A stretch of 64,000 bases of DNA from an uncultured delta proteobacterium (GCA_963769935.1 CAVYNY010000007.1:192001-256000), one strand, 5' to 3'; positions 528-37,671 are shown, counted from the first letter of the stretch. Notes: a model not told the origin generated them from the sequence alone. Program-made: numbers and translations.

Positions 528-625
528 ATGATAGGCTATTGAAAACATATCAGAATGATGGTGTGGTCCGATCACGCAGGACCGGACCCCGCAGGACCGC
601 GGGCGCAAACCGAGGAATTCGGAAA

Positions 626-8172: not shown

Positions 8173-8176
8173 TGCC

Positions 8177-9984: not shown

Positions 9985-11622
9985 TTACCGGGCGGCGGTT
10001 TTGTCGTTGCGGTCGAAATGTTCATTCATGAATTTCGCAAGGTCTGATGTGTCGAATGTGAATTTCATGTTTTTCCTGAATTTAGCGAGGTCGTCATACA
10101 AAGCTGAAGCGCTCTGATATCTTACCTCTTTTTTCTTTGCCAGGCATTTCATAACGATGTCATTGAGTTCGGCCGGGATCCCCTCTCTCGCTTGCATTAA
10201 AGGTTCGATCTCCAATGTTGGAATAGCTCGAATAGCTTCCACATCCGTGTCAAAAGCGTAGACTTTTTTTCCACTGATAGTTTCATAGAGAACCAGACCA
10301 AGGGCATAAATGTCGGTTCTTTGGTCGATGGGTTCTCCTAGTGATTGCTCGGGGGATAAATAAGCCAATTTTCCTTTAATGACGCCGGCCAGGGTTAGGC
10401 TCGGCTCGGATATTGCCTTGGATATGCCGAAATCGCTTATTTTTACCTCGCCTTCATAGGAGATCAGCATATTTTGCGGACTGATATCCCGATGGATAAT
10501 TTCAAGGGGTTGGCCGCTGTCGTCATCCCGCCGGCTGTGAGAATAATCCAGGCCTTTGCATATTTTGGAAATGATGAATACGGAATGTTCAATGGGCAGC
10601 CCCTTTCCCAAAGCTGTCAGGATTTCCTTTAAATTTTTCCCATGGATATATTCCATGGCAATGAAATAGGCGTTTTCGATATTGCCGTAGTCGAAAATTT
10701 GAACAACATTGGGGTGTTGTAATAGCGCGGCCAGGCGCGCTTCCCGGGTGAACATCTTGATGAATTCCGAATTTCCAGCCAGGTGCGGCAGGATGCGTTT
10801 TATGGCAACCTTTCTTCGAAAACCGTCTTCCCGTTCGTAATCCGCCAAAAACAATTCGGCCATTCCGCCCTGGGCAACCTTTTGACGAATCAGATAGGGC
10901 CCGATGCGCTCCATGTTTGCAATTTCCTGCTTGATTTTTAACACCCTGGCTTTGGCCCTGCGGTCATGCCAGAAAATTATCGCAACGGCTAAGACAGCAA
11001 GCAGAGCGATCCCGGAAAAATATATGCTCCGTGAAAAATTTATGAATCGATTAAGATCGGCGGTTGAAAGGTCGATATAGACCGCTCCGATCTTCACATT
11101 AGAAAACGTTATATCTTTAAAAAAACCGATATCTTCCGTGTTGTCCGGTAAATGATTTGCAGTTACCGTGACTTCGTCCCTTACAGCGATCGGTTTTTGA
11201 TTCTGAGGGGGCTCGAACTTACCAACTCTCGGTTCAGCGCCTGCCTGCGCCAGAATCGTATTTGTGTGATCAGTAATCACTGCGAAATTAAGGCTTTTGA
11301 TCTTCTCCAGTTCTCTGATTTCAACGCTAAGGGCAAGCTGCTCTTTTTCCAATACCAATGGTGCGCTTTTGGCTGCCAAATCGGCGGTAGCTGCGAGACC
11401 TTGCTGATAAAGATCATTTCTTGCCCGCTCAACGCCGGAGCGATAAACAAAATAGCCGGCTAAACCGGCAACCAGCCAGACAGCGAGGCAGAGGACGATT
11501 GTTTTGCCATTGCGGCGCATAAATTCCATTTCTTTTATATTTTTTGATATTCGGTTGAAAATGCTCGTTGAAAATTCCTTTACTTTTACCGCCGTCGTTG
11601 ACGCAATATCGGTCGCAAACAT
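9985..11622 (-). CDS. Ser/Thr protein kinase with N-terminal TM-periplasmic sensor-TM and C-terminal kinase domain
   Basis: AQGGMA, VAIKR, HRDISPQN, DFG and YLSPE. Two TM segments flank a ~140-aa extracytoplasmic domain. AGGAGG RBS. Confidence 0.92.
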   Translation of the reverse strand: MFATDIASTTAVKVKEFSTSIFNRISKNIKEMEFMRRNGKTIVLCLAVWLVAGLAGYFVYRSGVERARNDLYQQGLAATADLAAKSAPLVLEKEQLALSVEIRELEKIKSLNFAVITDHTNTILAQAGAEPRVGKFEPPQNQKPIAVRDEVTVTANHLPDNTEDIGFFKDITFSNVKIGAVYIDLSTADLNRFINFSRSIYFSGIALLAVLAVAIIFWHDRRAKARVLKIKQEIANMERIGPYLIRQKVAQGGMAELFLADYEREDGFRRKVAIKRILPHLAGNSEFIKMFTREARLAALLQHPNVVQIFDYGNIENAYFIAMEYIHGKNLKEILTALGKGLPIEHSVFIISKICKGLDYSHSRRDDDSGQPLEIIHRDISPQNMLISYEGEVKISDFGISKAISEPSLTLAGVIKGKLAYLSPEQSLGEPIDQRTDIYALGLVLYETISGKKVYAFDTDVEAIRAIPTLEIEPLMQAREGIPAELNDIVMKCLAKKKEVRYQSASALYDDLAKFRKNMKFTFDTSDLAKFMNEHFDRNDKTAAR

Positions 11623-11671: not shown

Positions 11672-12550
11672 CTAGGCGGTCAATTTTTGAATAATTTCAG
11701 CGCATCGCAATATGATCTGACGTTTGATCCCATAAAGATCCTGGCGGTCGGCAATCTCCGATAAATCAATTCCTTTTAAGTCAGCATGGCATTCAGCGTT
11801 CTGCCCGGGATTCGAAATCTTCGCGATCGATTTTTCGTAAAGATGGGGGTGATAAAATCCATCGGCATTGACGGTTTTATTTGTGCCGCACATGGGACAC
11901 ATGATCACGTGTTTATCCGCTCTCGGCGCCTCTTGACGCCGGTGCCAGAAAAAATCCTTCAGCAGCCGTGGGTTGACGTTGATTTTTCGCCAGCCCAGCA
12001 TTACCATGAACAGCAATAGACATAGAAAGCTTAAAGCCGCGGCGATCATAAATTGATTTCTGACCATTACCGTTTTTGCGGCTGAAAGCGCAAGGTAAAT
12101 TTCACCAATTTGGGTGCCGGCATAATGGATGCCTGATGTAAAACTGACAATTTTTTTTTGGTTTGGAAATTCGCCTTTCCAAAAGGTTATTTGATCCTTT
12201 TTTTGCACGGAATCATTTCTGACGGGTTTGACATTTTGGGCACCCGCAACGGCTACAATTTCATCGCGATAATCGGACACCGCCAGATATAGGATGTCCT
12301 TTCTTTGCCCGATATCCATTACCTGTCTACGGATGGCCGGCGTATCTTTTTCTAAAAGCTTAACACTGATTTGTTTGGCAAGTCCGCTAACGATATTGAT
12401 TCCGGATTCCTGAATGCCGGAATTGATGTGCTCCAATCGAAGGGCCGTGACGGCGTAGCCCAGGGCTATCAATATCCACCAGACGACAATACCCAAAATT
12501 AAATGGCGGGAGTTAAAACCTGCTCTTTTTAGCCGGCTCAAGTCCATCAA
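11672..12550 (-). CDS. Two-TM membrane protein with periplasmic domain paralogous to the adjacent kinase and a cytoplasmic CPMC motif
   Basis: LLEKD...LAVSD...IHYAGTQIGEIYLALS aligns with the kinase's VLEKE...AVITD...ITFSNVKIGAVYIDLS; C-terminal CPMCG. Confidence 0.75.
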   Translation of the reverse strand: MMDLSRLKRAGFNSRHLILGIVVWWILIALGYAVTALRLEHINSGIQESGINIVSGLAKQISVKLLEKDTPAIRRQVMDIGQRKDILYLAVSDYRDEIVAVAGAQNVKPVRNDSVQKKDQITFWKGEFPNQKKIVSFTSGIHYAGTQIGEIYLALSAAKTVMVRNQFMIAAALSFLCLLLFMVMLGWRKINVNPRLLKDFFWHRRQEAPRADKHVIMCPMCGTNKTVNADGFYHPHLYEKSIAKISNPGQNAECHADLKGIDLSEIADRQDLYGIKRQIILRCAEIIQKLTA

Positions 12551-12913
12551 TAAAATGATCCCCGCAAATTGCGAAGTTACAGTTCTTTCCGGTCCAGCGT
12601 TGTTATCGAAAGGCGCACATTGACCACAAGAGCGATGCGTGAATTATCATTTAATTTATTCGTCCGCGGGCGCCTTGTCAAGTAAATTAACGTTCGGAAT
12701 TTACTATATTTAATCTGCGCAGCGACCCGTTGCGGGGTAAATTTTAACTCAATTGATTGATTAAACCCGTTCAAATCTTAACTGAAATAATTTGACAAGA
12801 CATTGATATTCAGACTAATAATAGCCTGGTAGATTCCGCCGGTTGCCTGAGGTACGGTGATGGTTTTGGCAGGCTGAAGTCCAGCGCAAACAAAAACCGA
12901 ATGGGTTCTCAAG

Positions 12914-13933
12914 GTGATGACTTATATTCAGATTATTCTATTAGCCGCTCTGATAATGCCGGCAGGTTTACTTTCCTGCGTTCCTATCGGTCCAGCCTCA
13001 GGGTATTCTTCCTCAGGGGACTCATCCCAAAATATTTTTAGATCAAAGGAATTTATCGTCTATCAGTTGCCGACAGCCGCAACGTCGACTGAATTGGCCG
13101 AACGGTTTCTGGGAGACAGCCATAAGTCGTGGCTGATCGAGGAGTCCAATCCAGGCGCTGGCTTTAACAGCGGCGAGCTGATTGTCATTCCGCTGAATCA
13201 TTTCGACAGGGGTGGATTGTGGAGAGACGGTATACAGACAATACCCATCCTCACCTATCACCGGTTTTCCAATGATTGCAGTTCACCGCTTTGCGTGGGC
13301 AGCAGCATTTTTGAGAATCAGATGAGATATCTGAAAGAAAATGATTTCCATGTCATTTCACCGGAGCAGCTGCTCGCCTTTCTGGAATACAGGGAGGGCT
13401 TGCCGAAAAAATCCGTATTGATCACTATGGACGATGGATATCGTTCAGCTTATGAGATTGCTTATCCCATCCTCAAAAAATATGGCTTCACGGCGACGTT
13501 TTTTATTTATACGAATTTTGTCGGCGTATCCAAAATGGCCATTACCTGGGATCAACTGAAAGAACTGAAAGCAAATGGATTTTCAATCGGTTCTCATACC
13601 ATAAGCCACAGCGATTTGACCCAGCGCGAGGACGGGGAAACCGAGGCTGATTGGATGGCCAGGATTGATAAGGAACTTCACGGTTCCAAGCAAATACTCG
13701 ATAAAAAATTGAACCAGGATACGATATCGCTGGCCTATCCGTACGGCAAATATGACCAACGTGCCATCGAAACTGCCCGAAAAGCCGGCTACAAAATGGC
13801 GATGTCGGTCCAAAGAGGCGGCAACCCCTTTTTTGCCGATCCCCTGTATCTGCGAAGGGACATGATATTGAAAAAGGATCTGCAAACATTTATCTCCAGA
13901 CTGAATACTTTTAAACCCATGTCGTTAAAGTGA
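12914..13933 (+). CDS. Polysaccharide deacetylase (CE4/NodB) lipoprotein
   Basis: Lipobox LLSC; PILTYH, ITMDDGY, GSHTISH and AYPYG motifs; degenerate LysM-like segment before the catalytic domain. Confidence 0.9.
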   Translation: MMTYIQIILLAALIMPAGLLSCVPIGPASGYSSSGDSSQNIFRSKEFIVYQLPTAATSTELAERFLGDSHKSWLIEESNPGAGFNSGELIVIPLNHFDRGGLWRDGIQTIPILTYHRFSNDCSSPLCVGSSIFENQMRYLKENDFHVISPEQLLAFLEYREGLPKKSVLITMDDGYRSAYEIAYPILKKYGFTATFFIYTNFVGVSKMAITWDQLKELKANGFSIGSHTISHSDLTQREDGETEADWMARIDKELHGSKQILDKKLNQDTISLAYPYGKYDQRAIETARKAGYKMAMSVQRGGNPFFADPLYLRRDMILKKDLQTFISRLNTFKPMSLK

Positions 13934-13940
13934 GAATGCC

Positions 13941-15365
13941 ATGAAAACAAGAGCTGGAATTATCGGTATTATCTTTTTGTGCGTGCTGGCAAACGGTTGC
14001 GCAACCTTGGGGACCAAGTCGTCCCCCAAAAATCGTGAGCAGTTGGCTGATGAGTATCAGACCAAAGCCCGGGATTACGAAGCGAAAGGTGAATTGGTTG
14101 AAGCGCTGGAACAATACAGACTTTGGCTCACGGTAGATCCTGAAAACAAATCGGCTCAGGATAAAAGCACGCAGATCGGACAGGAACTTCAAAAGTTGGC
14201 CGAAAGCCATTATCAAAGCGGACTGGCCTACTATCAAAAGGGGCAATACACTCCGGCCCGCCAGGAATTTTTAACTGCCCTCAGAGATGATCCGGATCAC
14301 CAGGGGGCAAAAGAGATGCTTATAGCCAATCGAGAGTTGGAACAGGTCGACAGATATGTATTGCATACGATCCAACCGAATGAGACCCTTGCAACATTGG
14401 CCAAACAATACTACGGCGACTATAAGAAATTTCATTTGATCGCCATATACAATGGCATCGAGGACGCCACTAAAGTCAGGGTCGGACAGCAGATTAAGGT
14501 TCCGGTCTTCGAGGGGGTCCCGATTATGGCAGATCCATCGAAAATTCTGACTGTTTCCGGCAAAGCTCCTCAAGCAAAACCGGAAGAAATCATAACGGTT
14601 AAAGGTTTCGTCGTCCATACCGTTAAAGCTGAGGATACCCTGTCGAAGCTGGCAAAAGAGTATTACGGCGATTTAAAAAAATTTGATCTCATTGCCAAGT
14701 TTAACGACATGCAGGTATCCGACAGTCTGCAGGTCGGACAGGAGATTAAAATCCCTGAGGTCGAGGGCGTGCCGTTTCTGGCACCTGAAGCCAAAGAGCT
14801 GACAGAGATCAAAACGCCGGAAGCGGAGGCCCCGGCGGCGAAAGAAGCACAGCCGGAAAAAGCTGCAGAGGAGCCGGCAACAGCCAAAGTGGAGGCCTCC
14901 GAAGAAGACCAGGCGGCCGCTTACCGGAAGTCCGGCATTGAGTTCTATCAGGATAAGAACTATGCGGACGCGGTAGTAGAACTGCAGAAGGCTTTAAGTG
15001 CAAATCCGGATGATAAGGTTACTAAGGATTATCTGTCGTTAGCCTACTTTGAACAAGGAGTTGCTTCCTTTAACAAAGAGGACTATTCTCAGTCCATCAA
15101 GGCGTTCGAAACCTCCCGGCAGTTCAACAGCAGCTGTGAAAAATGTGAATCGTATCTAAAGCAAAGCCAGGAAAAATTCAAAGATCTTCATTATCGCCAA
15201 GGGGTCTCGTATTTCGGGCAGGAAAAACTGGCCGAAGCCATCAGCGAATGGCAACAGGTTTATAACATGGATCCGAACTACAAGGACGTCAGCAAAAATA
15301 TATCCAAGGCTCAAACATTGCTGCAACGCCTTGAGGAAATACAAAAGAGCAATCAAAAAAAATAA
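13941..15365 (+). CDS. TPR - 2x LysM - TPR lipoprotein
   Basis: Lipobox ANGC; HTIQPNETLATLAKQYYG...GQQIKVP and HTVKAEDTLSKLAKEYYG...GQEIKIP; flanking TPR helices. Confidence 0.9.
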   Translation: MKTRAGIIGIIFLCVLANGCATLGTKSSPKNREQLADEYQTKARDYEAKGELVEALEQYRLWLTVDPENKSAQDKSTQIGQELQKLAESHYQSGLAYYQKGQYTPARQEFLTALRDDPDHQGAKEMLIANRELEQVDRYVLHTIQPNETLATLAKQYYGDYKKFHLIAIYNGIEDATKVRVGQQIKVPVFEGVPIMADPSKILTVSGKAPQAKPEEIITVKGFVVHTVKAEDTLSKLAKEYYGDLKKFDLIAKFNDMQVSDSLQVGQEIKIPEVEGVPFLAPEAKELTEIKTPEAEAPAAKEAQPEKAAEEPATAKVEASEEDQAAAYRKSGIEFYQDKNYADAVVELQKALSANPDDKVTKDYLSLAYFEQGVASFNKEDYSQSIKAFETSRQFNSSCEKCESYLKQSQEKFKDLHYRQGVSYFGQEKLAEAISEWQQVYNMDPNYKDVSKNISKAQTLLQRLEEIQKSNQKK

Positions 15366-15515
15366 CCCGAATTAAATCCAAATTGAGTCAAAAGTCTACG
15401 TGTGCTGCCGAAATGCGATTCGCTCCCGCAAAACAACAGACCTGAAACCGCGCAGATTTCTCTCATTAACATCCGTCATAATATCTCTGAATCTGCTAAA
15501 TAGAATTTTGAGACA

Positions 15516-17009
15516 ATGGCCAACCAAACCGCAACCACGTCGATTGCGCCCGCCCCCCCGCCGATCAGGGTGAGAATCGAAAAAGGCACTGCCGACAAAA
15601 GCGAGTATGTGTTTACCCAACCATTTCGCTGCGGGCGCGATGAAAGCTGTGAGGTACGACTTGCCGATACGGCGGTGAGTAGATTTCATGCCGAATTTTG
15701 GTTTTCGGCCGGAAGATGGTGGATACTCGATTTGCAAAGTGGCAATGGATCGTACCTGGATGGAACGAAAGTCGAACGTGCGCCGATAGCAACCCTGGCC
15801 AGAGTCCAGCTGGGCGATGATGGTCCGGTGCTTCTCTTGACGGTTGAACGGGTTCCAACGGCTGAAGACGTTAAAGAAGATAAAAAGGTTCAAGACCGGC
15901 CCCGCTCACTTGAACACTACCAGGAGCACTATTTCCAGGATACTGAAAAAGGCAATGTCGGCGAGCATACGATGATGATCCGGCAAGCCTTTAAAAGGGT
16001 CCAAAACCGCCAGAGAGGAAGATTTATCGCTGTCATCTCGATTTTGAGTTTTTTGGTTCTAGCCGCCGGTATATATGCTCTGTACAAACATCAGGAAGTT
16101 TCCAAGCAAAAATTATTGGCCGAGGATATTTTCTATGCCATGAAATCCATGGAGCTTGAGTTTGCGCCGCTTGTAAAGATGGCCAGACTCAGCCAGGATG
16201 CCAACCTTCTGGCTAAGGTCCAGGAGTACCAAGCCCGCCGCAAAGTGCTGGAAAACAAGTATGACAAGTTTATCGAAGCACTTGAAATCTATAAGAAAAG
16301 CATCAGTCCCGAAGAAAGGATCATTCTGCGTATCGCCCGTATTTTCGGTGAGTGTGAAATAAAAATGCCTGAGGGTTTTGTGCACGAAGTGTTGAATTAC
16401 ATTGAGAAATGGAAAGCCACCCCCAGGCTGAAAATGGCTGTTCAACGGGCCCGGCAAAGAGGCTACACCACCAAAATAGCTGAAACCTTGCTGGCTCATG
16501 ATTTGCCCCCCCAGTATTTTTATCTGGCCCTTCAAGAGAGTAATTTTGACCCCGAGGCTTGCGGACCGGAAACCAAATGGGGCATTGCAAAAGGAATGTG
16601 GCAATTCATACCGGATACAGCTGTTGTTTTCGGTCTTCGCACCGGCCCCCTGCAAGATCAGCGACGGCCGGATCCGCTCGACGATCGCCATGATTTTGAA
16701 AAGTCGACCGAAGCGGCCGCCAAGTACATTAAGGCCATTTATGATACGGATGCCCAGGCTTCCGGGCTGCTGGTTATGGCCTCCTACAACTGGGGTGAAA
16801 GACGGGTGAACCGGCTCATTAAAACAATGCCTGAAAATCCACAGGAAAGAAATTTCTGGCTTCTGCTGGACAAATATAAAAAGCAAATTCCCCGTGAGAC
16901 TTACGACTATGTGTTTTCCATCTTTTCAGCCGCCGTCATCGGCGAAAACCCCGCTCTTTTCGGCTTTGACTTTGAAAATCCGCTGATGCATATCGAAAGC
17001 CGATTGTAA
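15516..17009 (+). CDS. FHA domain - TM - coiled coil - lytic transglycosylase (SLT/MltD-like)
   Basis: FHA GR...VSRFH...DLQSGNGS; TM FIAVISILSFLVLAAGIYAL; SLT motifs QESNF, GMWQF and SYNWGE. Confidence 0.9.
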   Translation: MANQTATTSIAPAPPPIRVRIEKGTADKSEYVFTQPFRCGRDESCEVRLADTAVSRFHAEFWFSAGRWWILDLQSGNGSYLDGTKVERAPIATLARVQLGDDGPVLLLTVERVPTAEDVKEDKKVQDRPRSLEHYQEHYFQDTEKGNVGEHTMMIRQAFKRVQNRQRGRFIAVISILSFLVLAAGIYALYKHQEVSKQKLLAEDIFYAMKSMELEFAPLVKMARLSQDANLLAKVQEYQARRKVLENKYDKFIEALEIYKKSISPEERIILRIARIFGECEIKMPEGFVHEVLNYIEKWKATPRLKMAVQRARQRGYTTKIAETLLAHDLPPQYFYLALQESNFDPEACGPETKWGIAKGMWQFIPDTAVVFGLRTGPLQDQRRPDPLDDRHDFEKSTEAAAKYIKAIYDTDAQASGLLVMASYNWGERRVNRLIKTMPENPQERNFWLLLDKYKKQIPRETYDYVFSIFSAAVIGENPALFGFDFENPLMHIESRL

Positions 17010-17531
17010 AGCGCGGTGAGATCATCCAAATCATCCCTTGACAACCGATTAAATTTTAATTACAGAGAACAAGCTTTGTGAACATCTGCCTCATAAAGCT
17101 CATTTCAGTATTCAGCTAAACCCTCTCATCTGATAATTTCTGTAGCGCTAACAGTGGAACTATTCAAGGTGTTGCGCAATATGTCTTCTAATTTTTTAAT
17201 GGTGCTATGGAGGCAGATTCCAATTTTCCCGCAATTGAATCGGATCAAATGTAGTATAGATTTCATAAAATTATGTAGCTCTTTGCTTAATTTTTTTGAT
17301 CCAAATATTCGGCTTTCTATCTAAAATACTGTAATTATTGTTTATATGTTTTCAGTCGTTTTTTGTATAATTTTTGCATGAGAAGGCGACATCTGGGCGT
17401 AAAAATTCCGTGTCTTATGCGAAATGCTTTGAATGTCAAATGAATCATGGGGATTTTTCGGTGATTCTATCATAGGGCAGGATAACAGAGGAATTCTCCA
17501 AATCCGTGGGCATCCAAACAGGAGGTGACAT

Positions 17532-18887
17532 ATGTGTAAAAAGATCATTTATCTTCGGATACTTTTTATATTTGGACTAGTGATGCTTTCGGGCTGCACG
17601 TCGTATATGAAAGGTACCATGGATTTGGAGCGGGAAAATTATGAAGCTGCCATCGAAAACTTCCAGCAGGAACTGTCAAAAAACCCAAACAACTGGCAGG
17701 CCAGGCAGCAACTCGGGTTCGCTTATCTGAAAACCGGTCGGAATGACCAGGCAATTGCCGAGTTGCAATACGTCCTGGGGCAAGAGCCGGCTGACGTAAC
17801 GGCCTTGAGCTACGCCCCCAAGGATGTCGAGCGCGGGCTGGGGCAAAAACCGGATGCCCCTTACGCGAATTATTACCTGGGACTGGCGTATTTGCGCAAC
17901 GGACAGCGAAGTGAGGCCGTTGAAACCTGGCGGACCTACAATAATCCGCGTGAGCCGATACTGGCAGACGAAATCAAAAAACAGGTAACGGTCGTCGATA
18001 TCTATGACAGTCTGTATCTTGCCAGGCAAGCCCTGGAAGAGGAGAAAAAGCTTGAAACGACGCCGCCCAAACCGGGAACGGTCGCCGTATTTTATTTCAA
18101 GGATCTCAGCCCGGACAATCGCTTTCGCTATCTGCAAAAAGCAATGGCTGAAATGATTATCACGGATTTGACGAAGGTGAAATCTTTGCAGGTTCTGGAA
18201 CGGACGCGCGTACAGTATCTTTTGTATGAGATGAAAATGGGACAGACAGGCATTGTTGAAGAAAAAACGGCACCTCGAGCGGGTCGGCTGCTCGGGGCCG
18301 AAAACCTGCTCGTGGGCAGCCTCGAACCCGGCAGCATAGAAGCCAAGGCCAGCGTAGCTTCCACGACATCCAAGGATGTGGTCGGCGCCTTTTCAGTCAA
18401 AGCGGAGCAGGAAGAGTTTTTTGTGCTGGAAAAAGAAATAGTCTATAACGTATTGAAAGTATTGCCGGTTACTTTCACTCCGGAGGAAGAAGCGCAATTT
18501 AAAGGGTATCACACCAAAAACCTGCAGGCCGTCCTTTACTTCGGCCAGGGACTCGATGCCCTGGATGCGGGTCAATGGAAAGATGCCAGGGTTTCCTTCA
18601 AAAGGGCCACTGAAGAGGACCCGGACTTTAAATTGGCCCAATATTATCTGGAGCGATGCCCTGCTGCAACTGTCGCCAGTTTAACTACCCTGGGTGGGAT
18701 GACGGTGGGGCAAATGGCCGACAATGTCGAAGCGGCTGTGGATCAGGCCTCAAGTGCTCAAGCGGCCATAACATCCGGCCAGGGAACAGGGCCTGGAGAA
18801 GGGGGTGTTCCTTCTGGCCCAACGCCGGCACCGGCGCCGACACCGACTCCGGGACCTACTACCGGAAATGTATCCATCAGCTGGTAG
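17532..18887 (+). CDS. TPR + CsgG/TolB-N-like lipoprotein with Pro/Thr/Gly tail
   Basis: AGGAGG RBS; lipobox LSGC; TPRs; VAVFYF...VLER...AGRLLGAENLLVGS. Confidence 0.85.
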   Translation: MCKKIIYLRILFIFGLVMLSGCTSYMKGTMDLERENYEAAIENFQQELSKNPNNWQARQQLGFAYLKTGRNDQAIAELQYVLGQEPADVTALSYAPKDVERGLGQKPDAPYANYYLGLAYLRNGQRSEAVETWRTYNNPREPILADEIKKQVTVVDIYDSLYLARQALEEEKKLETTPPKPGTVAVFYFKDLSPDNRFRYLQKAMAEMIITDLTKVKSLQVLERTRVQYLLYEMKMGQTGIVEEKTAPRAGRLLGAENLLVGSLEPGSIEAKASVASTTSKDVVGAFSVKAEQEEFFVLEKEIVYNVLKVLPVTFTPEEEAQFKGYHTKNLQAVLYFGQGLDALDAGQWKDARVSFKRATEEDPDFKLAQYYLERCPAATVASLTTLGGMTVGQMADNVEAAVDQASSAQAAITSGQGTGPGEGGVPSGPTPAPAPTPTPGPTTGNVSISW

Positions 18888-21166: not shown

Positions 21167-22123
21167 ATGTTATGGAAAATGAAAACCATAAAATCCGTAA
21201 TGATCAGTTGTTTGTTGATTTGCCCGATCTTTTTTTTTGATTCCCCATGTGCCGGATCGGAAACCTCCTCCCGGTTGTATTCTCTTCCTATCAGCGAACT
21301 GGAAGCCATAATGTCAGATTGGCTCACCCGGTCCGGTTTTCAAATACAGCGTTCCAAGCCTGAAATGGGCGATGTTCAGTTAACCATTACGCGACCGGCC
21401 GAAAAATTACAAATCGTTTTAAAACCTCATTCAGCCGTGACGACCGAGCTTCATGCCCTGCCTGCGGCGATCGCTTCCCAGGAAAATGCCACCATTGACC
21501 GCATGGCGGCCTATCTTGAGAAGTATATCCAGGCACTGGCCGAACAAAAGGAAAACTCCAATCAAATTATTCCGCCGGTGGTCCTGGCGCAGATCGGAAA
21601 TGTGGTCTGCCTGAAAACAAGATTCCATGATAAAACAGCACAGTATTCCGGCGTTATTGTGGATACTCAGGGCCTTATTCTGAGCACAATCCATGATGTC
21701 CAGACGCTGCATGGTATTACGATCACCCTTTTTGATGGCCGTGAAACAACGGGCGAGATCATTAAAAGGGACATCAAACACGACCTTGCTCTGATAGACA
21801 TCGGATCGAGTGTTGAGCATGCCGTTTCTCTGGCCCAGAGTCGCAACCTGCTGGGGATGGGCGAGAGAGTGTACTCGGTCGGGTGCCCGATGGATCTGGT
21901 CGGCTCGGTTTTTCCCGGCATCATTAACGGACCTCCCCGGCGAGTCGGGGATTTGCCGTACTGGCAGGTCAACATGGAGATTCATCCGGGCAGCAGCGGC
22001 AGTCCTGTTTTTGATGTCCAAGGCAATCTGGTCGGAATTGTAAAGGGCCGCTACCGGGGTACCGAAACCATCGGTTTTCTAATCCCGATCGAGACCATCA
22101 TCGCATTTGTGAAAGGACCGTAA
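21167..22123 (+). CDS. Exported trypsin-like serine protease (S1, no PDZ)
   Basis: Triad contexts STIHDV, HDLAL and PGSSGSP; N-terminal hydrophobic leader. Confidence 0.88.
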   Translation: MLWKMKTIKSVMISCLLICPIFFFDSPCAGSETSSRLYSLPISELEAIMSDWLTRSGFQIQRSKPEMGDVQLTITRPAEKLQIVLKPHSAVTTELHALPAAIASQENATIDRMAAYLEKYIQALAEQKENSNQIIPPVVLAQIGNVVCLKTRFHDKTAQYSGVIVDTQGLILSTIHDVQTLHGITITLFDGRETTGEIIKRDIKHDLALIDIGSSVEHAVSLAQSRNLLGMGERVYSVGCPMDLVGSVFPGIINGPPRRVGDLPYWQVNMEIHPGSSGSPVFDVQGNLVGIVKGRYRGTETIGFLIPIETIIAFVKGP

Positions 22124-22126
22124 AAT

Positions 22127-23311
22127 ATGAACTACGGTCGGTACGAGGTTGTTGATGAAATTGGCCAGGGTTCAATGGGGGTTGTTTATCGGGCCTATGA
22201 TCCCCAAATCAATCGGCACATTGCTTTGAAGCTATTGCGCCAGGACCGGGTCACCAGCGAGGAATTGGTGCAGCGATTTCTCAAAGAGGCCCAGGCCATG
22301 GGAGGGCTTTCGCATCCCAACATCGCCACCGTTTACGATACGGGACAGGATCACGGCACCATCTTCATTGCCATGGAAATATTGAGGGGTAAATCCCTCA
22401 AAGACCTTATGGGGGAAAAGAAATTAAGTCTTAATGAAATTGTTCATATCGGCGTTCAGGTCGCCGAAGCGCTTGACTTTGCCCACCAGAAAGGCATTGT
22501 GCACCGGGACATAAAGCCCTCCAATATCATTATAGATCCTAAAGGCAATGCAAAAATCACAGACTTCGGCATTGCGCACATCGAGGATCCTGCCGGCACC
22601 CAGCAAACGATACCCGGACAAATTTTAGGCACCCCCCTTTACATGTCGCCCGAGCAGGTCATGAGCAATCCCGTGGACGGGCGCTCGGATCTTTATTCTT
22701 TGGGGGTTATCCTATATGAGATGACCACCGGAACCCCTCCCTTTAAAGGCGATAACCTCGCCGCCATCTTCCAGGCAATTTTGCAGGGGACACCCCGGGC
22801 GCCGGAGCTGGACGGATCTCCTGTTTCCCGGAACCTCTCCAATCTGATTATGAAGAGTTTGAACAAAGATCCCGCCAAGCGATTTCAGACGGGCCTGGAG
22901 ATGGCACAACCGCTCAAAGGTTGTCTTCAGAGGAGGCAGTCGGATACCATCCGGGGCGTGAGGCGTCCTGAAAAACGCAAACGCCTTTTTCCCATGGTGT
23001 TGGCAGCCATAGTACTCCTTGCCGCAGCCGCCGGATTGATTTATTTTAAGACCGGCAAAAGTACCCCGCCGGAAAACAAGCTTTTAGCAGTTTTAAAAGT
23101 CGAGAGCGATCCCTCGGGCGCCAACGTTTTTTTAAACGACTCCCTTAAAGGCCAAACTCCTCTGACCATTGATCTGCCTCTCGGGAAATATGAAATTCGT
23201 TTAAGTCGCCAAAATTTCAATGAATGGGAAGCTCAACTTCAACTGGATGAAGCGGGTGAAACGCCTTTGTTTGTAAGGCTTATTGCCGTGGAAAAAAATC
23301 AGAACCCATAA
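22127..23311 (+). CDS. Ser/Thr protein kinase - TM - PEGA domain
   Basis: GQGSMG, ALK, HRDIKPSN, DFG and YMSPE; TM; PEGA-like VESDPSGANVFLN...GQTPL...LPLGKYEI. Confidence 0.95.
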   Translation: MNYGRYEVVDEIGQGSMGVVYRAYDPQINRHIALKLLRQDRVTSEELVQRFLKEAQAMGGLSHPNIATVYDTGQDHGTIFIAMEILRGKSLKDLMGEKKLSLNEIVHIGVQVAEALDFAHQKGIVHRDIKPSNIIIDPKGNAKITDFGIAHIEDPAGTQQTIPGQILGTPLYMSPEQVMSNPVDGRSDLYSLGVILYEMTTGTPPFKGDNLAAIFQAILQGTPRAPELDGSPVSRNLSNLIMKSLNKDPAKRFQTGLEMAQPLKGCLQRRQSDTIRGVRRPEKRKRLFPMVLAAIVLLAAAAGLIYFKTGKSTPPENKLLAVLKVESDPSGANVFLNDSLKGQTPLTIDLPLGKYEIRLSRQNFNEWEAQLQLDEAGETPLFVRLIAVEKNQNP

Positions 23312-23332: not shown

Positions 23333-25288
23333 GTGATTAAAATGAGGTCCCTTATAAAAATGCTTGCCTGCTCGGCAGCACTTGTCGGCCTCGCTGTCAT
23401 CATCAGCGAGCCGGGCTACGGCCAAATTGCTGCCGGCCGACAGGCACCCGCCTTTGCCTTGGAGGATATCGGCGGTAAGCACCATGAGCTGGCAACGCTG
23501 GAAAACACGCCGATGGTTATTCTCTATTTTTTTGACGTAACGTCCCGACCCAGTCAAGAAGGCCTGTTGGCGCTGGATAATCTTGCCGGACGCTATGCGC
23601 AGGCCGATTTGAAAGTGTGGGCGATCACCCGTTCCGCCAAAGAAAATGTGTCTGAATTTGTTTCCCGGAGCCGAATTTCCTACCCGGTTCTCGTAGACAA
23701 TTCCAAAGTCAGCGATCTTTACCAGGCCCGCTTCGTGCTGCCGACGGTTTGCATCCTTGGCCCCGGGTTGAAAGTGCTGGATTATATACAGGGAGGCGGC
23801 AAAACCACCGAAATTATGCTGGTGAAGTTGGCTGAAAAAGAATTGCAGCGTAAACAGACAACGATCGCGAGAGAGATCAGTGAAGATGTTGTCCGCAAGG
23901 ACCCGCAAAATGTAGATGCTAAAATGGTCAAGGGATACGCGGAACTCAAAGGCGGCGATCTGGCTGCCGCTGAAAAAACCTTCAACTCCCTGTCTCAAGA
24001 CGCGGGCCAGGGCAAAGTTCTGGGCGAAGAGGGGATGGTTTCCGTGTATGCCGAGAAAGGACAGACCCAAGAGGCTTTGGACCTGGCCGAGAAAGTAGAG
24101 CAAAAAGCACCGGATCGGGGGTATGTGAATACCGTCAAGGCAGATATTTTATATGCCAAAGGCCAAAAAAAAGAAGCCCAGGCCGAATACCGCAAGGCCG
24201 TGAGTAAAAAATCGGCCGCTCCTTTTCAAAAGGCGGTTTCGCTGAATAAGCTCGGGCGCCTGCAGGCCAGTATCGGGAATTTGTCCGGGGCCCGGGAGCT
24301 TTATGATCAGGCGGTGGCAATTGATCCTTATTACATTGAAGCAACCGCCAATTCTGCCAAGACTTACGAAAAAGAGGGCAAGTGGGATAAAGCCCTGGGT
24401 GCGTACCGCCAGGCTCTGGCAGTCGATAAAGATGATGTGTTTGCCGCGACCCTGGCGAAAAGAGCTCAGATGATGGTTGCGCTCCAGAATGATGTTGAGA
24501 GAAAAAAACGCATGGACGCCCTGGTCAAGCGCCTGGCCGAGCGCTATCGCAGCCAGCAGCAATCCAAAACCAAAGCAGCGGAAGACTCCTGGACGTCGCG
24601 GCCCATGGTGATGACTTTCGTCGATTTGCAGGAAAAAGGCGGATTATCCGAACGGGATGGATTGCCCACCGTTTTAATGTTTCAACTGTCCGATGAGCTC
24701 AATGCATCCGGCCGAATTCATGTGGTCGAACGGATCTTGATTGAAAAACTGCTCGAGGAATTAGATCTCGGCTCCTCGGACTTGGCCGATCCCGATACGG
24801 CCTTAAAACTGGGCAAAATACTGGCCGCTAAAATCATCGGTACCGGTTCTATTTACTATCTTCCGGCCGGCAATATTCTGAGTCTGCGCTTGATCGATAC
24901 CGAAACCTCGGAGCTGCCCAAGATCATCAACCGCCAGTTCGGTCCGAAAGTGTCGCTGGATAAAGAACTGAATCAGCTTTATCACGAAATTCTGACAGCT
25001 GTTATGCAAACTTATCCGTTGCGAGGCTACATTGTGCAGGTATCTTCGGATCGGATTATGATCAACCTGGGATCAAAACAGGGTGTGAGCCAGGGCACTA
25101 AATTTGAGGTATTAAAAGAAAAGGAACCCATCGAGTACAAGGGTAAAATCCTGCACGGTGCACCCGAAGCCGTTGCATTATTGCAGGTGGAGCAAGTCGA
25201 GCCGGATCTTTCTTACGCGCGCATTCTGAGCAAGCAAATCCCCATCGCCCGCGATGACAAGATTCAGGAGAAAGTGGGAAAACTCTAG
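23333..25288 (+). CDS. Exported thioredoxin-fold (no CxxC) - TPR - CsgG-like - FlgT-C-like protein
   Basis: APAFALED.GG redoxin start; TPR array; VVER...EELDLGSS..AD...ALKLGKIL; INLGSKQGV..G.KFEV. Confidence 0.8.
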   Translation: MIKMRSLIKMLACSAALVGLAVIISEPGYGQIAAGRQAPAFALEDIGGKHHELATLENTPMVILYFFDVTSRPSQEGLLALDNLAGRYAQADLKVWAITRSAKENVSEFVSRSRISYPVLVDNSKVSDLYQARFVLPTVCILGPGLKVLDYIQGGGKTTEIMLVKLAEKELQRKQTTIAREISEDVVRKDPQNVDAKMVKGYAELKGGDLAAAEKTFNSLSQDAGQGKVLGEEGMVSVYAEKGQTQEALDLAEKVEQKAPDRGYVNTVKADILYAKGQKKEAQAEYRKAVSKKSAAPFQKAVSLNKLGRLQASIGNLSGARELYDQAVAIDPYYIEATANSAKTYEKEGKWDKALGAYRQALAVDKDDVFAATLAKRAQMMVALQNDVERKKRMDALVKRLAERYRSQQQSKTKAAEDSWTSRPMVMTFVDLQEKGGLSERDGLPTVLMFQLSDELNASGRIHVVERILIEKLLEELDLGSSDLADPDTALKLGKILAAKIIGTGSIYYLPAGNILSLRLIDTETSELPKIINRQFGPKVSLDKELNQLYHEILTAVMQTYPLRGYIVQVSSDRIMINLGSKQGVSQGTKFEVLKEKEPIEYKGKILHGAPEAVALLQVEQVEPDLSYARILSKQIPIARDDKIQEKVGKL

Positions 25289-25300
25289 CTGGAGAAAGCC

Positions 25301-25801
25301 GTGTCGCTGCCAAAGCAACTCATAGGACTGTCACTGCTGCTGCTTGCGTTTTTATCCGGATGCACCCCGCTGCCTAAGCCAAGTGTGGACCGGCAGACGT
25401 CGGCGGTTGCTGTCTGGGATTTGGAAAACTTGAATCCGGACGAGGGCATCGGGACCGATATGGGCGAACTTTTGGCGTCGGAAGTGATCGAGACGTTCAA
25501 AGAATCCAGTACATTTCAGGTAGTCGAAAGGCAGCGTCTCATCCTGGCGCTGGAAGAGTTGAATCTGGGCAGCTCTTCTTTGGCCAACGAGGCGACGCGC
25601 TTGAGAATCGGCCGCATCGTGGGCGCCCGTTTCATGGTATTCGGCGGTTATTTCGTGCTCGGCGATATGATGCGTCTGGATTTGCGATTGGTGGAGGTTG
25701 AAACCGGCGCGATCGTCAAAGCGGCAGAGAAGACAACTGCTGCCGGTGATTTGAACGGCTGGCTGAAAGCCACGCGGCAGGCAGCCGAGGAATTGATTTA
25801 G
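25301..25801 (+). CDS. CsgG/HfaB-like lipoprotein
   Basis: Lipobox LSGC; VAVWDL...VVERQRL...EELNLGSS...IGRIVGA...RLVEVETG. Confidence 0.85.
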   Translation: MSLPKQLIGLSLLLLAFLSGCTPLPKPSVDRQTSAVAVWDLENLNPDEGIGTDMGELLASEVIETFKESSTFQVVERQRLILALEELNLGSSSLANEATRLRIGRIVGARFMVFGGYFVLGDMMRLDLRLVEVETGAIVKAAEKTTAAGDLNGWLKATRQAAEELI

Positions 25802-25802: not shown

Positions 25803-27515
25803 ATGATCGAGGGGGGACTATTGCCCACGATGCGTTTCAAAATCGTTAACACGGATGATCCCAATCTTGTTTTTGAGACAGATCGGCGAGAATTCGCACT
25901 CGGCAGATCCAAAGAGTGTGAGATCGTCATCCAAGATCCTTCTATTTCAAGGGTTCAGGCCCGGGTTCGGTTTGAAAGCAACCGTTTTTACATTGAAAAT
26001 ACAGGGCAAAATCCCGTTCAGATAAATGGCGCACCCACAGCCGGCCAGTTTCTCAATGACGGTGATCAAATTACGCTGGGCACAACCAGTTTCCGGTTTC
26101 AAGCAGACCGGACTTTTGATGTAACACCGCATCCGATCGCTTTTGACGAGAAAACAATCGCCGTTGGCTCCCTGCCGAATCATACATTGGGTCCACGCCT
26201 GGTTCTCACCACCGATGCCGGCGACACGCAAGCATACCCCATGAATAAGGACCGCCTTATCATCGGTCGGTCCGAAGATGCAGACATCGCTTTGCAGGAT
26301 CCCTCCATTTCGCGCCAACACGGCATAATCGAACAGCGGGAAGACGGGTATTTTGTCAAAAACTTGAGCCAAACCAATCCGTTATTGCTCAATGATGCGA
26401 CCGTTTCCGACAATCGCCTTTATTCAGGGGATCTTATTCGCGTCGGCTCTTTTTATTTGACTTTCGTATCAGACCGGCCCGAGGACGCCAAACCCATCGA
26501 GGAGAAGATCATCACTCAGCAAAAGGGACCGGGGTGGGCGCTCTGGCTGGCAGCGGCCTGCTTAATTCTGATTGCTGGAAGCTTCTTGCTTTACCGGCAT
26601 GCTTACTATCCCTGGAAAATTAATCGGAACCTGAAATCAATTGCCGGTCAAATTGCGGCGGGCAAATATCAGCCGGCCCAAGACGCGCTGCGGCGTCTGC
26701 TCACTAAAGGCGTCTCGCCGGACAGCAGGCGCAGGGCCAGAGAGCTGCTGGCTCAGACGGCGCTGGCGATTGTGCAGAATCTGGCCGAAGCCGGCAAGCT
26801 TCCGGAGGCGGAACAATACCTGATTGCCTATCTGAAAGAATATGGCGGCGGCAAAGAAGCGGACACTCTCTGGGAGCGCCTGGATATGTACCGGGTCGAA
26901 ATCGCTCAAAACCTGGAAACCGCCTCGCAGTATCAGGCCGCTTTGGGCCTGTATGCAGCGGTGAGAGAAGACAGCCCCTATTATGGCCGCGCCCAGCAGG
27001 GCATCCGGCGAATTTGGCTTGCGTCCCAGCAGGAACAACGCCGGGATCAGAATGTGGCCCAATTGCTTCAGGAGGCTGATCAGGATTTCAGAGCCAAACG
27101 CTACCTGACGCCGGTCAACAGCAATGCCTATTCTGTTTATCAGGCCGTTCTGGCCGCAGATCCTGAGAACTCCATTGCTCTGGAGCGCATCGAGCAAATG
27201 AAAGACTTCTATCTCAGATACGGCGAAGAGTATTTTAATAAAAATAGCTGGCGCAATGCCCTGACCTATTTTGAACGATATGTTTTTATGGCACCCGATT
27301 CACCGGACATCCAGCAGAAAATCGACCTCTGCCGCGCTAAGTTGAAAGCATCCGATTCGAACGGTCCGCAGACCGGGGCAAAATCAGCCGCACCGGAAAA
27401 GAGCCGCGAGCAGGTCAAAAAATTACTCGAAGAATCCGGCGTTGAAAGTTCGCGCATCATCAAATTTCTTTATGAGGATCCGGGCGGTGAAAAAGATCCC
27501 GAAAAACCCTGGTAG
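25803..27515 (+). CDS. Tandem FHA-FHA - TM - TPR protein
   Basis: Two GRS...DPSISR motifs; TM WALWLAAACLILIAGSFLLY; helical repeats after the TM. Start may be ATG 25830. Confidence 0.88.
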   Translation: MIEGGLLPTMRFKIVNTDDPNLVFETDRREFALGRSKECEIVIQDPSISRVQARVRFESNRFYIENTGQNPVQINGAPTAGQFLNDGDQITLGTTSFRFQADRTFDVTPHPIAFDEKTIAVGSLPNHTLGPRLVLTTDAGDTQAYPMNKDRLIIGRSEDADIALQDPSISRQHGIIEQREDGYFVKNLSQTNPLLLNDATVSDNRLYSGDLIRVGSFYLTFVSDRPEDAKPIEEKIITQQKGPGWALWLAAACLILIAGSFLLYRHAYYPWKINRNLKSIAGQIAAGKYQPAQDALRRLLTKGVSPDSRRRARELLAQTALAIVQNLAEAGKLPEAEQYLIAYLKEYGGGKEADTLWERLDMYRVEIAQNLETASQYQAALGLYAAVREDSPYYGRAQQGIRRIWLASQQEQRRDQNVAQLLQEADQDFRAKRYLTPVNSNAYSVYQAVLAADPENSIALERIEQMKDFYLRYGEEYFNKNSWRNALTYFERYVFMAPDSPDIQQKIDLCRAKLKASDSNGPQTGAKSAAPEKSREQVKKLLEESGVESSRIIKFLYEDPGGEKDPEKPW

Positions 27516-29457: not shown

Positions 29458-30354
29458 TTAGGATTTGAAAAATTTGCCGAAAATTTTTTTAGCAACTTTA
29501 GGGGAAGCGGTGGTTTTGTTTTCAGCTGGCGGCGGGGTTTCCGGCGCCTGAGGAGGCACATCGGTTCTTTGCAATGGTGCGTCTTCAATTTCTGCCAGAC
29601 GGCCGGCGCCCAAAAACCGGAAGTTGGGTCCGTCGGCGCTCAGGGAGAGGCGACTTTCGGGCTGCAGTGCAGCTTGAGACGGCACGGGCGACCCATTGAT
29701 GGCAACCTGGTTTCGGCCGGTCAGATCTTTTACCCAATATTGTCCCTGATGGAAGAAAATCTGGGCGTGTTGCTCCAAAATACCGGGATGGTCGATGCTG
29801 AAATCACACGCCGGGTTCCGGCCGATGGTGACGGGCAGTTCCTTGAACGTACGCAGGGTCGGCCCATACTGAATGATCAGGGGCATCTTTGTTCTTTCGA
29901 TCTCCATTGCCGGAGCCGGCATCTCCGGCGGAGGCGGGGAAGGGGCCCGCGGAGTTTGAGGTTGAGAAGGCCGGGGCCGATTCATCCGGTCTGCTGGTAT
30001 TTCCGGAGTTTGCTGAAAATCCGCCGGTGATTCAGCAATTTTGGTCAGAAAACTGACTTTAGGCCCACCGTCGGCAAAAAGTAAAATATCGCCGTCTTTT
30101 AAGATTGCTTCGGTTATCCGTGTCCCGTTTAAAAACGTTCCGTTGGTGCTCTGATCAATTAATTTGAAACGATTGCCTTCCCTGACGATGCGAGCATGTT
30201 CGCGGGAAATGATGGCCAGATCTTTTGGGAAGCGCACATGGCAGGACGGCTGACGCCCGATGGATATTTCATTATCAGGAAATTCCTGAATTTCCCCCTT
30301 CATGGGACCCTGAATATGAACCAATTGCATAATAATGAGAGGTGCTTTTTTCAT
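29458..30354 (-). CDS. Soluble double-FHA protein with Pro-rich linker
   Basis: FHA1 IGRQ...ISREH...STNGT is intact; FHA2 IGRN...LEQH...GRNQV is degenerate. No TM. Confidence 0.9.
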   Translation of the reverse strand: MKKAPLIIMQLVHIQGPMKGEIQEFPDNEISIGRQPSCHVRFPKDLAIISREHARIVREGNRFKLIDQSTNGTFLNGTRITEAILKDGDILLFADGGPKVSFLTKIAESPADFQQTPEIPADRMNRPRPSQPQTPRAPSPPPPEMPAPAMEIERTKMPLIIQYGPTLRTFKELPVTIGRNPACDFSIDHPGILEQHAQIFFHQGQYWVKDLTGRNQVAINGSPVPSQAALQPESRLSLSADGPNFRFLGAGRLAEIEDAPLQRTDVPPQAPETPPPAENKTTASPKVAKKIFGKFFKS

Positions 30355-30518: not shown

Positions 30519-31265
30519 GTGCAGATGACTATGCTGAACATTAATTTTGCTGGAAAAACCAACATCGGCCTCAAGCGAACCGCCAATGAGGACGTGTTTA
30601 TCATTGAAGGCCAACGGGGATTTTGCCTGGTAGCCGACGGTTTGGGTGGGGCCGCAGCTGGTGATGTAGCCAGCCGGTTTTTTGCCGAAGCAACGGCGGA
30701 AGTATTTCGGCAGGCCGCCGATTTGGATGAAGAAAATGTCGTCAAGCGAGTTCAGGAGTCTTTCCGCCTGGCCCATGATAAAATACGGGATCATATAAAG
30801 ATAAATCCCTTACACAATGGCATGGGGTGCACTGCCGAATTGTTGGCGTTTTCCGATCAAGGGTTTGTTGTCGGACATTTGGGGGACAGCCGGACATATC
30901 GTTTCAGAGACGGCCATTTGAAACAATTGACGCACGACCATTCCCTGGTTCAGGATCAACTTGACAAGGGGCTTATCGGCGAGGAAAAGGCCAGGCGGCA
31001 TCCCCTTAGAAACGTTATTCTCAAGGCAGTTGGTATCGAGGAGGATCTGGCCCTTGATTTGATCCGCGGGCGGACCTACCCCGAGGACCAATTCCTGCTC
31101 TGTTCGGATGGATTGACGGATATGGTCGAAGACGTTGCCATCGGCAAGGTCTTTAACTCACCGATCCCGGCCGGCAAAAAAGTAGACCAGCTCATTGATC
31201 TGGCGCTTGCCGGCGGCGGCAAGGACAATATAACCGTGGTTCTCATAGATATCAAAGGATCATGA
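30519..31265 (+). CDS. PP2C-family Ser/Thr phosphatase (Stp1/PrpC-like)
   Basis: R..NED, VADGLGG, HLGDSR.Y, DHS, LCSDGL and GGKDN. Confidence 0.95.
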   Translation: MQMTMLNINFAGKTNIGLKRTANEDVFIIEGQRGFCLVADGLGGAAAGDVASRFFAEATAEVFRQAADLDEENVVKRVQESFRLAHDKIRDHIKINPLHNGMGCTAELLAFSDQGFVVGHLGDSRTYRFRDGHLKQLTHDHSLVQDQLDKGLIGEEKARRHPLRNVILKAVGIEEDLALDLIRGRTYPEDQFLLCSDGLTDMVEDVAIGKVFNSPIPAGKKVDQLIDLALAGGGKDNITVVLIDIKGS

Positions 31266-36568: not shown

Positions 36569-36985
36569 ATGAAAAGATCCTATTTGATTGCAATCGTACT
36601 CGCCGTTTTGCTGGCAATGCCGCTGGGCGCGGCCGCAAAAACCATCAAACTCACCGTCGCTGAAATCCACCCCCAAGATTATCCCACCACGCAAGGGTTG
36701 TTCAAATTCGCCGAACTGGTAAAGCAACGTTCCAAGGGAGAAATTATCGTCGATGTCAAATACGGCGGCCAGCTGGGGAAAGGCGAAAAGGAGGTTGTCG
36801 AGCAGGTGCAGTTCGGTGCGCTGGACATGGCCCGCATCAGCGTCTCACCGGTCACCGAGTTTGGGCCTTCACTGGAAGCTTTTGGCCTGCCCTACATCTG
36901 GGCCAGCCGCGATCATATGTGGAAGGTCTTGAACGGTCCGACCGGCCAGGGACTTTTAAAAGATGCGGCATTTCCCAGAAACTGA
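36569..36985 (+). pseudogene. dctP: TRAP substrate-binding protein, N-terminal fragment
   Basis: Signal peptide, [19 protein letters not shown] and LPY; terminates after ~132 homologous residues. Confidence 0.8.
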
Positions 36986-37450: not shown

Positions 37451-37467
37451 CCAATTCCCTGATCCAT

Positions 37468-37671
37468 CTGACCGACTCCCGCAGCTTTCTCTCCTACCCA
37501 CGGCATGAGTACTTTCGGAGAATATTGTGCAACCTGCTGGGCAAAGAGGTGGAAGGCGGCGAACTGCCCGATGACCTCGAACTGCTGGGGAATATGGTCA
37601 AAGATATTTGCTACTACAATGCCGAGAGCTATTTCGGCTTCAACGATTCTGACGATAAAGAGCTGCATTAG
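37468..37671 (+). pseudogene. uxaC: Uronate isomerase C-terminal fragment, fused in frame to the dctM fragment
   Basis: [25 protein letters not shown]...DICYYNA..YF is the UxaC C-terminal signature. Confidence 0.85.

Follow-up and report, generated by a model that had tools for sequence, protein, structure and literature searches.

Does the wall-cutting enzyme encoded by one gene of an uncultured delta proteobacterium answer to threonine phosphorylation, and which process would it serve? The gene lies in a 64,000-nucleotide stretch of DNA (GCA_963769935.1, CAVYNY010000007.1:192001-256000; hereafter, the window) and encodes an FHA domain, a transmembrane (TM) helix and a lytic transglycosylase in a single chain.

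An FHA domain and a lytic transglycosylase in one membrane protein

Both ends of the protein matched Pfam families over the curated cut-offs, with FHA at residues 38-100 (E 2.9e-13) and SLT (PF01464) at residues 333-441 (E 2.2e-14). The phosphothreonine pocket, described as intact in the initial annotation, is complete, and its residues (G40-R41, S55-R56-x-H58 and N77-G78) are conserved in 116-119 of the 120 best homologs. The catalytic glutamate of the proposed MltD-like domain is E341, in Q340-E341-S342; it is invariant in the best homologs (120/120) and in the loci that we collected from GTDB genomes (80/80). Alignment to MltD placed the catalytic Glu in its ES motif and revealed GxxQF, YNxG and ET-x-x-YV, which we take to be family 1 lytic transglycosylase motifs. 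Only one hydrophobic segment is present (residues ~171-189; Kyte-Doolittle 19-mer maximum 2.54), as first noted, and no N-terminal signal or lipobox pattern was found in the fusion protein. Among aligned members, K/R residues average 6.4 before this helix and 3.4 after it, and the net charge is higher before than after in 93/93. Because of this positive-inside bias, the N-terminus and FHA are predicted to be cytoplasmic and the enzyme periplasmic, in agreement with the topology originally put forward.

An AlphaFold2 model built from a 93-sequence alignment (mean pLDDT 88.5, pTM 0.66) predicts, in order, the FHA domain, a low-confidence linker, a membrane-crossing helix (148-226), a second stalk helix (229-256) and the catalytic domain. 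The "coiled coil" of the initial annotation corresponds to these long predicted helices. A model from the single sequence (pLDDT 38.7) was set aside. We consider it very probable that the protein is a membrane-anchored enzyme with a cytoplasmic FHA domain and that the enzyme is, as predicted, active. Promoter and terminator scans of 12400-17600 gave counts at chance level.

Table 1 Features of the fusion gene and its neighbourhood (window coordinates).
Feature	Position	Strand	Remarks
Membrane Hanks-type Ser/Thr kinase, two TM, periplasmic loop, C-terminal kinase	9985..11622	-	Candidate writer
Two-TM protein, no family match	11672..12550	-	Directly before kinase gene in relatives
Polysaccharide deacetylase lipoprotein	12914..13933	+	Co-directional upstream neighbour of fusion
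TPR-LysM-TPR protein	13941..15365	+	Co-directional upstream neighbour of fusion
FHA - linker - TM - stalk - MltD-like lytic transglycosylase ORF	15516..17009	+	ATG start, 497 aa; Pfam, AlphaFold2
FHA domain with intact pThr pocket (R41, S55, R56, H58, N77)	15552..15851	+	Residues 13-112 (model); Pfam 38-100
Conserved short linker helix Y135-F140	15918..15935	+	Model; Y139 co-lost with FHA pocket
G149-E-H-T152-M-M-I-R156 motif	15960..15983	+	T152 codon 15969-15971, predicted phosphosite and predicted FHA ligand
Single predicted TM segment, residues ~171-189	16026..16082	+	Within continuous predicted helix 148-226, register conserved
Periplasmic helical stalk, residues 190-260	16083..16295	+	Model, alignment
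MltD-like family 1 lytic transglycosylase domain, no LysM	16326..17000	+	Catalytic E341 codon 16536-16538
TPR-CsgG-like lipoprotein	17532..18887	+	Recurrent neighbour of fusion
Trypsin-like peptidase	21167..22123	+	Recurrent neighbour, directly before second kinase
Hanks-type kinase - TM - PEGA	22127..23311	+	Candidate writer
AhpC-TPR-CsgG-like protein and CsgG-like lipoprotein	23333..25801	+	Recurrent neighbours
Two FHA domains - TM - TPR protein	25803..27515	+	Pfam, TM scan
Soluble two-FHA protein	29458..30354	-	Recurrent neighbour; TIGR03354 88 bits, below 120 cut-off
PP2C-type Ser/Thr phosphatase	30519..31265	+	Candidate eraser

The fusion forms a large and sparsely distributed family

The same FHA and SLT pair occurs in 119 of the 120 best homologs, and chance, a frameshift or a fusion artefact is therefore rejected. 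Relatives are encoded in 292 stretches of the GTDB collection; the best 80 of these, kept as loci, span Desulfobacterota, Acidobacteriota, Betaproteobacteria, Myxococcota, KSB1, Bacteroidota, Nitrospirota and Aminicenantes. The family is large, with profile matches at E<1e-30 falling into 760 clusters at 50% identity. It is also sparse, being carried by 2/301 genomes in the window's phylum (Desulfobacterota, as judged from the nearest named homologs). Cultured carriers include Desulfopila sp. IMCC35008 and Aquabacterium humicola RJY3.

Automatic database names already give both domains of the fusion, and ESM Atlas clusters with the pair carry the name "hypothetical protein"; the architecture appears to be annotated in databases but uncharacterised. 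The initial annotation had left room for an earlier characterisation. Our literature search, which covered openly available full texts, turned up no paper on an FHA-transglycosylase fusion. Such a fusion is also absent from the compared portions of a 2026 review of T6SS accessory factors, which lists MltE, TagX and TagH (PMC13584744). The other literature compared was PMC9251886, PMC6733907, PMC12419801, PMC3608642 and PMC3482391. The fusion is real and conserved, and it is apparently undescribed.

A linker threonine is lost together with the FHA pocket

The juxtamembrane motif EHTMMI (residues 150-155) had been singled out as a candidate phosphosite. It contains the sole strongly conserved threonine of the cytoplasmic part, T152, found in 89/93 sequences of the core alignment, where the next best threonine reaches 41/93. 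The residue is present in 119/119 ungapped rows of the 120 best homologs and in 73/78 ungapped GTDB loci.

We profiled the joint state of T152 and the pocket (scored on R41, S55, H58 and N77) in 194 non-duplicate members. Three exact duplicates were left out, as were rows in which the alignment did not reach the FHA domain, and the 14 rows whose linker could not be aligned were scored as lacking Thr. Members with an intact pocket kept T152 in 158 cases and lost it in 19; those with a degenerate pocket kept it in 3 and lost it in 14. This co-loss has a log odds ratio of 3.5; the 80 periplasmic control columns, similar in conservation to T152, reach at most 1.57 (median 0.12). The pattern is present in all three divergence terciles, and Y139 and G149 likewise decay with the pocket. 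In a FastTree phylogeny built from the periplasmic part (two short rows left out), the pocket state changes 12 times. The tree-corrected comparison gave 3 to 0 among 5 supported independent pairs (p 0.25), which falls short of significance because only these 5 pairs lie on well-supported branches.

Among the 165 Thr-bearing members, the -2 position is E/D in 116 and the +3 position is I/V in 138. With an acidic residue at -2 and hydrophobic residues at +2/+3, the context of T152 resembles the tails of DgcB and of the GarA/OdhI type, which have E at -2 and hydrophobic +2/+3 positions (according to the portion of PMC6733907 compared). We infer that the linker motif may be a ligand of the protein's own FHA domain, either in cis or between chains, and we lean slightly towards such a self-ligand switch. 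A shared outside partner of the motif and the FHA domain would fit the co-loss equally well, and the 19 members that keep the pocket without T152 imply that some of these FHA domains must read other ligands. Complex prediction of the FHA domain (12-113) with the unphosphorylated linker (128-169) scored 0.02, which counts neither for nor against self-capture.

Conserved helix register and replacement of the FHA domain by a kinase

T152 lies 55 residues from F206 in 93/93 rows of the core alignment A1, in which the linker from the FHA domain to T152 varies in length from 28 to 82. In the wider family, the distance from T152 to the periplasm (F206) is again 55 in 143/163 members, and of the 19 exceptions, 17 are offset by a whole number of helical turns (-3, +3, +4, +7, +11 or +14); L016, which contains a run of X, was left out of this count. 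The bias towards whole turns has a p of about 1e-4 with likely shared events merged. This shows that the helix is continuous between the predicted phosphosite and the periplasmic stalk and that its register is conserved. A conserved register is the expected look of a signalling helix, but any amphipathic structural helix would behave similarly, so that the whole-turn indels show continuity and not signalling.

In four relatives (P0233, P0239, P0241 and P0268), a Hanks Ser/Thr kinase replaces the FHA domain before the same TM-transglycosylase. These kinase-TM-SLT fusions fall at four separate points of the transglycosylase tree, where many branches are weak, and the swaps provide independent support for coupling to kinases. 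With the co-loss of T152 and the pocket and the kinase and phosphatase neighbours described below, the comparative evidence makes it highly likely that the fusion is phospho-coupled, as had been suggested for its wall cutting from the start.

The gene lies in a kinase and phosphatase module

The fusion gene belongs to a 21-kb module in which genes for two membrane kinases and a PP2C phosphatase are also found. The module further encodes two more FHA proteins, a LysM-TPR protein, a deacetylase, a protease and lipoproteins of CsgG-like type (Table 1). The two-TM protein encoded next to the first kinase is found ahead of the two-TM kinase in six related loci and has a weak sCache_4 match (E 0.069); it is a possible co-receptor. 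A second copy of the gene pair for the FHA-TM-TPR protein and a GNA1162/beta-helix protein is found on another contig (L084:9755-12918, G000 C1).

An MBOAT and AlgX-like/SASA esterase pair adjoins the module (window 4678-9604) and was not observed to recur beside the fusion. We presume that this pair performs AlgI/AlgJ-type O-acetylation; O-acetylation of peptidoglycan blocks lytic transglycosylases. The kinase module and the T6SS effector region are separated by defence-like genes with TIR, RES and TPR-S domains (window 539-1774 and L083:6939-14266). Split or frameshifted ORFs occur in the assembly at vgrG (L082:14282-16523) and at window positions 36919-37671 and 53899-55162.

Two RNA-library runs contain a relative at about 92-97% identity; the contigs listed extend over the deacetylase and LysM-TPR genes and over hardly any of the fusion gene. 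A contig from the X11 run (relative at about 97% identity) joins position 15390 to 16971 and keeps the last ~40 bases of the fusion gene, which means that this relative lacks the gene. In this strain the fusion appears to have been lost, with the deacetylase and LysM-TPR genes still in place.

A T6SS with no full-length TagH in its core lies upstream of the window

The initial annotation missed a probable client of the fusion, a T6SS just upstream of the window that travels with the query's branch of the family. The system is complete and lies on the same contig (tssJKLM, tagF, tagJ, tssABC, hcp, tssEFG, clpV, vgrG and PAAR); its end is about 28 kb from the fusion gene, with unrelated genes in between. 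Contigs from two short-read studies do not share the break in vgrG and differ there by one base, so the frameshift is probably an assembly error.

The core of this T6SS has no full-length TagH, kinase or phosphatase. Directly before tssJ lies an ORF of 243 aa (L081:6077-6805, G000 C7) that is like the C-terminal part of TagH and has no FHA domain. Its PF20232 match is below the cut-off (E 0.049), PF20232 is present in 3/120 homologs, and the ORF is conserved before tssJ in L012, L095, L105 and L107. This suggests a putatively split TagH. The head gene of the cluster (L081:3840-6081) is one ORF of 550-880 aa in four relatives and two ORFs here. Its product is rich in Cys in the N-terminal part and has a Pro-rich tail with 4-6 E-T-x-[VI]-[LI] repeats, and no family match was found for it. 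Scanned as [ED/A]-T-x-[VIL]-[VILM], the motif occurs 4-6 times at the end of the gene in this genome and the four relatives, and its density in the head gene is the highest among the genome's 3668 long ORFs (6 in 413 aa versus 0.22 per 400). Judging by these repeats, the head gene is a candidate for a multi-phosphothreonine docking platform. We rejected an N-terminal threonine of TssL as a ligand, since neither an N-terminal extension nor a conserved Thr at the N-terminus was present in the five Desulfobacterota-type clusters examined.

A further gene in the cluster, just before vgrG, encodes an FHA - adenylate/guanylate cyclase protein (L082:12775-13716). A second TssC-family gene with a TssB-like N-terminal part was observed at L082:10979-12559, and several loci have genes of this kind close to the fusion.

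Carriers of the fusion usually encode a T6SS

Of the 80 carrier genomes, 66 gave a TssC match at E<=1e-30 (43/50 and 23/30, plus one weaker match). The background in even samples was 34/300 for the window's phylum and 25/250 for Acidobacteriota (10-11%). Three TssC-negative carriers have vgrG or PAAR beside the fusion gene. An even sample of the window's order gave TssC in 6/8 carriers versus 49/192 non-carriers, and the seventh of the 8 carriers is TssC-negative with TssF and TssM; at least 3 of these 8 are also among the 80 loci (same coordinates). The fusion gene directly follows PAAR in the T6SS operon of Desulfopila IMCC35008 and tssJKLM-tagF in L012, and it lies inside T6SS operons in L009/L095-L097, L012, L037 and L062.

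Close linkage is less common. A TssC-family match lies within 36 kb on the same contig in 16/43 TssC-positive genomes, only 24/80 loci have a T6SS marker within 10 kb, and 27/80 have a kinase or PP2C gene within that distance (neighbours annotated by tblastn; "FHA2x" matches directly before the gene are the fusion's own FHA domain and were uncounted). In Terriglobia the gene is mostly unlinked to the T6SS, with 541 kb between them in L039. Of nine carriers in a random Acidobacteriota sample (centre genome excluded), seven were without TssC, one of these being a close member at 667 bits, and three of the seven also lacked TssF and TssM. Several TssC-negative Acidobacteriota carriers have an adjacent kinase gene instead (L113, L117). 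T6SS genomes, in turn, are mostly without the fusion (33/35 in the phylum sample; 2/35 carry the gene).

Within the query's clade, which is weakly supported, TssC was found in 42/44 tested members versus 3/11 outside it; these counts were made by hand before the further 30 carrier genomes were added. From the clade counts and the kinase neighbours, kinase coupling looks family-wide, and the T6SS looks like a client of the query's branch. The genomes are related and often incomplete, so that the T6SS counts overstate independence and understate presence. On this genomic evidence, we regard a T6SS as the likely client of the fusion.

Two proteins of ~256 aa, c4 (L055:201-971) and c5 (L013:2132-2908), are encoded beside the fusion in T6SS loci (16/80 and 14/80). 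The first also occurs in Acidobacteriota and Betaproteobacteria, and neither was found in this genome. No family matches were found for either (for c4, in Pfam and NCBIfam), and c4 had no Atlas match above 0.84.

Possible roles of the fusion

We give an even chance to the reading that the fusion is the kinase-gated wall opener of a T6SS. A neighbouring membrane kinase would phosphorylate T152 at the cytoplasmic foot of the long helix, and the protein's own FHA domain would capture pThr152, either in cis or between partner chains, a step with precedents in GarA, OdhI and DgcB. Capture would shift the continuous helix 148-226 and thereby switch the periplasmic transglycosylase, probably on rather than off. 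Local glycan cleavage would let the TssJLM complex pass the wall, a job done elsewhere by MltE or TagX, and the PP2C phosphatase would reset the switch. A fuller version is tentative and holds less of our confidence. It adds that the helix moves as one rigid piece within a one-polypeptide switch, coupling the T6SS threonine-phosphorylation signal to wall opening at the assembly site, with TagH divided among a core piece that lacks FHA, a docking protein with multiple threonines, and separate FHA readers.

Phosphorylation could instead set where the wall is cut and not whether the enzyme works. The enzyme would then always be active, its FHA domain would dock a phosphorylated T6SS protein in trans, and pT152 would recruit another FHA protein. 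The dense repeats of the T6SS head gene would suit such docking, and a TagH-C-like ORF without FHA before tssJ implies that FHA readers would act in trans. The members that keep the pocket and lack T152 also fit, and in Agrobacterium, Fha is known to bind the pThr of TssL (stated in the portion of PMC13584744 compared). However, the TssL proteins examined here offer no comparable N-terminal site, and localisation alone leaves unexplained both the decay of T152, G149 and Y139 with the protein's own pocket and the kept helix register. We think this doubtful. The fusion might also belong to a general kinase-coupled system for envelope remodelling or repair, acting with the deacetylase, the LysM-TPR protein and the CsgG-like lipoproteins, with the T6SS merely sharing the genomic island. 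Carriers without T6SS markers exist, some with a kinase gene directly beside the fusion, kinase or PP2C genes are found within 10 kb as often as T6SS markers, and the nearest co-directional neighbours are the deacetylase and the LysM protein. This reading is unlikely given TssC in most carriers from several phyla, even where the gene is unlinked, and the position of the fusion inside T6SS operons in several genomes. In addition, the close relative with the deacetylase and LysM-TPR genes (one contig) does without the fusion, and four genomes of the same genus lack both the fusion and TssC.

Least probable, in our estimate, is an outside-in sensor, in which the SLT domain would sense or process damaged peptidoglycan and signal inward through the helix, exposing T152 or moving the FHA domain and so leading to retaliatory T6SS assembly. 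A continuous helix could signal in either direction, the kinase-TM-SLT fusions are laid out like receptor kinases with an SLT ectodomain, and T6SS assembly triggered by attack through threonine phosphorylation is known (from the portion of PMC9251886 compared). Against it, the invariant catalytic Glu and its surrounding motifs fit an enzyme better than a pure sensor, and an FHA domain has no catalytic output of its own.

Comparison with known systems

The C-terminal part of the fusion best matches the structure of P. aeruginosa MltD (8rhe; Z 18.6, 189 aligned, rmsd 3.4). MltD (PDB 8RHE/8RHF/8RHI) is also the only PDB sequence match (E 1.4e-10) and the best NCBIfam match, and it has the catalytic fold and motifs in common with the fusion. 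MltD (family 1D) has an N-terminal lipoprotein signal, whereas the fusion has no lipobox and instead has the internal TM segment and a cytoplasmic FHA domain. The fusion also lacks LysM, ending just after the catalytic domain, and scores 56.2 bits on NF008050, for which the cut-off is 508. On these three differences (no LysM, no lipobox, NF008050 below cut-off), we rejected membership in MltD.

Peptidoglycan cleavage is needed for T6SS assembly, as described for MltE, which is recruited by TssM in EAEC Sci-1, and for TagX of Acinetobacter, an inner-membrane anchored, T6SS-encoded L,D-endopeptidase (PMC13584744, PMC9251886; portions of both). The gene for MltE, a housekeeping enzyme, lies outside the T6SS locus, and TssM stimulates the enzyme in the periplasm; neither MltE nor TagX is described with a cytoplasmic phospho-reader in the portions of these papers compared. 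The fusion is not a TagX, as its domain is SLT and not the VanY-type L,D-endopeptidase of the definition given there (PMC13584744). With TagH/Fha1 of the PpkA-PppA pathway, it shares an FHA domain with an intact pocket, genes for a membrane kinase and a PP2C alongside, and a link to the T6SS. Unlike TagH/Fha1, it spans the membrane and is fused to an enzyme rather than soluble in the cytoplasm, and it has no T6SS_FHA_C domain and no TIGR03354 match at E<=0.01. Membership in TagH was rejected on the absence of both and on the presence of one TM segment with a periplasmic domain. Like T6SS accessory (Tag) proteins, the fusion is encoded in or with T6SS loci; this does not extend to the wider family, and the distance here is 28 kb.

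The top fold matches of the N-terminal part are the FHA domains of GarA, OdhI, Rv1747 and DgcB. GarA, OdhI and Bdellovibrio DgcB combine, as the fusion does, an FHA domain with a conserved threonine of their own, E at -2 and hydrophobic +2/+3 residues. By sequence comparison, the threonine of the fusion is likewise in a putative FHA-ligand context and appears to evolve with the pocket. In DgcB, capture of the tail activates the attached enzyme (in the portion of PMC6733907 compared). The fusion differs in that its Thr is C-terminal to the FHA domain at the foot of the TM helix, the -3 residue is Gly, and the output would lie across the membrane.

By analogy, the fusion resembles MltE or TagX coupled to the TagH pathway, with a self-switch like that of DgcB. 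How T6SS assembly is placed in space and time has been called unclear (PMC9251886, portion compared). In the portions of the literature compared, separate modules see to the timing of the T6SS (PpkA/PppA/Fha) and to the opening of the wall (MltE, TagX), and the fusion family would have both in one chain. Were its control allosteric, threonine phosphorylation would govern a peptidoglycan hydrolase from across the membrane, a case of which our literature search found no description. The family offers exact sites for mutation in T152, R41/S55, E341 and, by insertions in or out of register, the helix.
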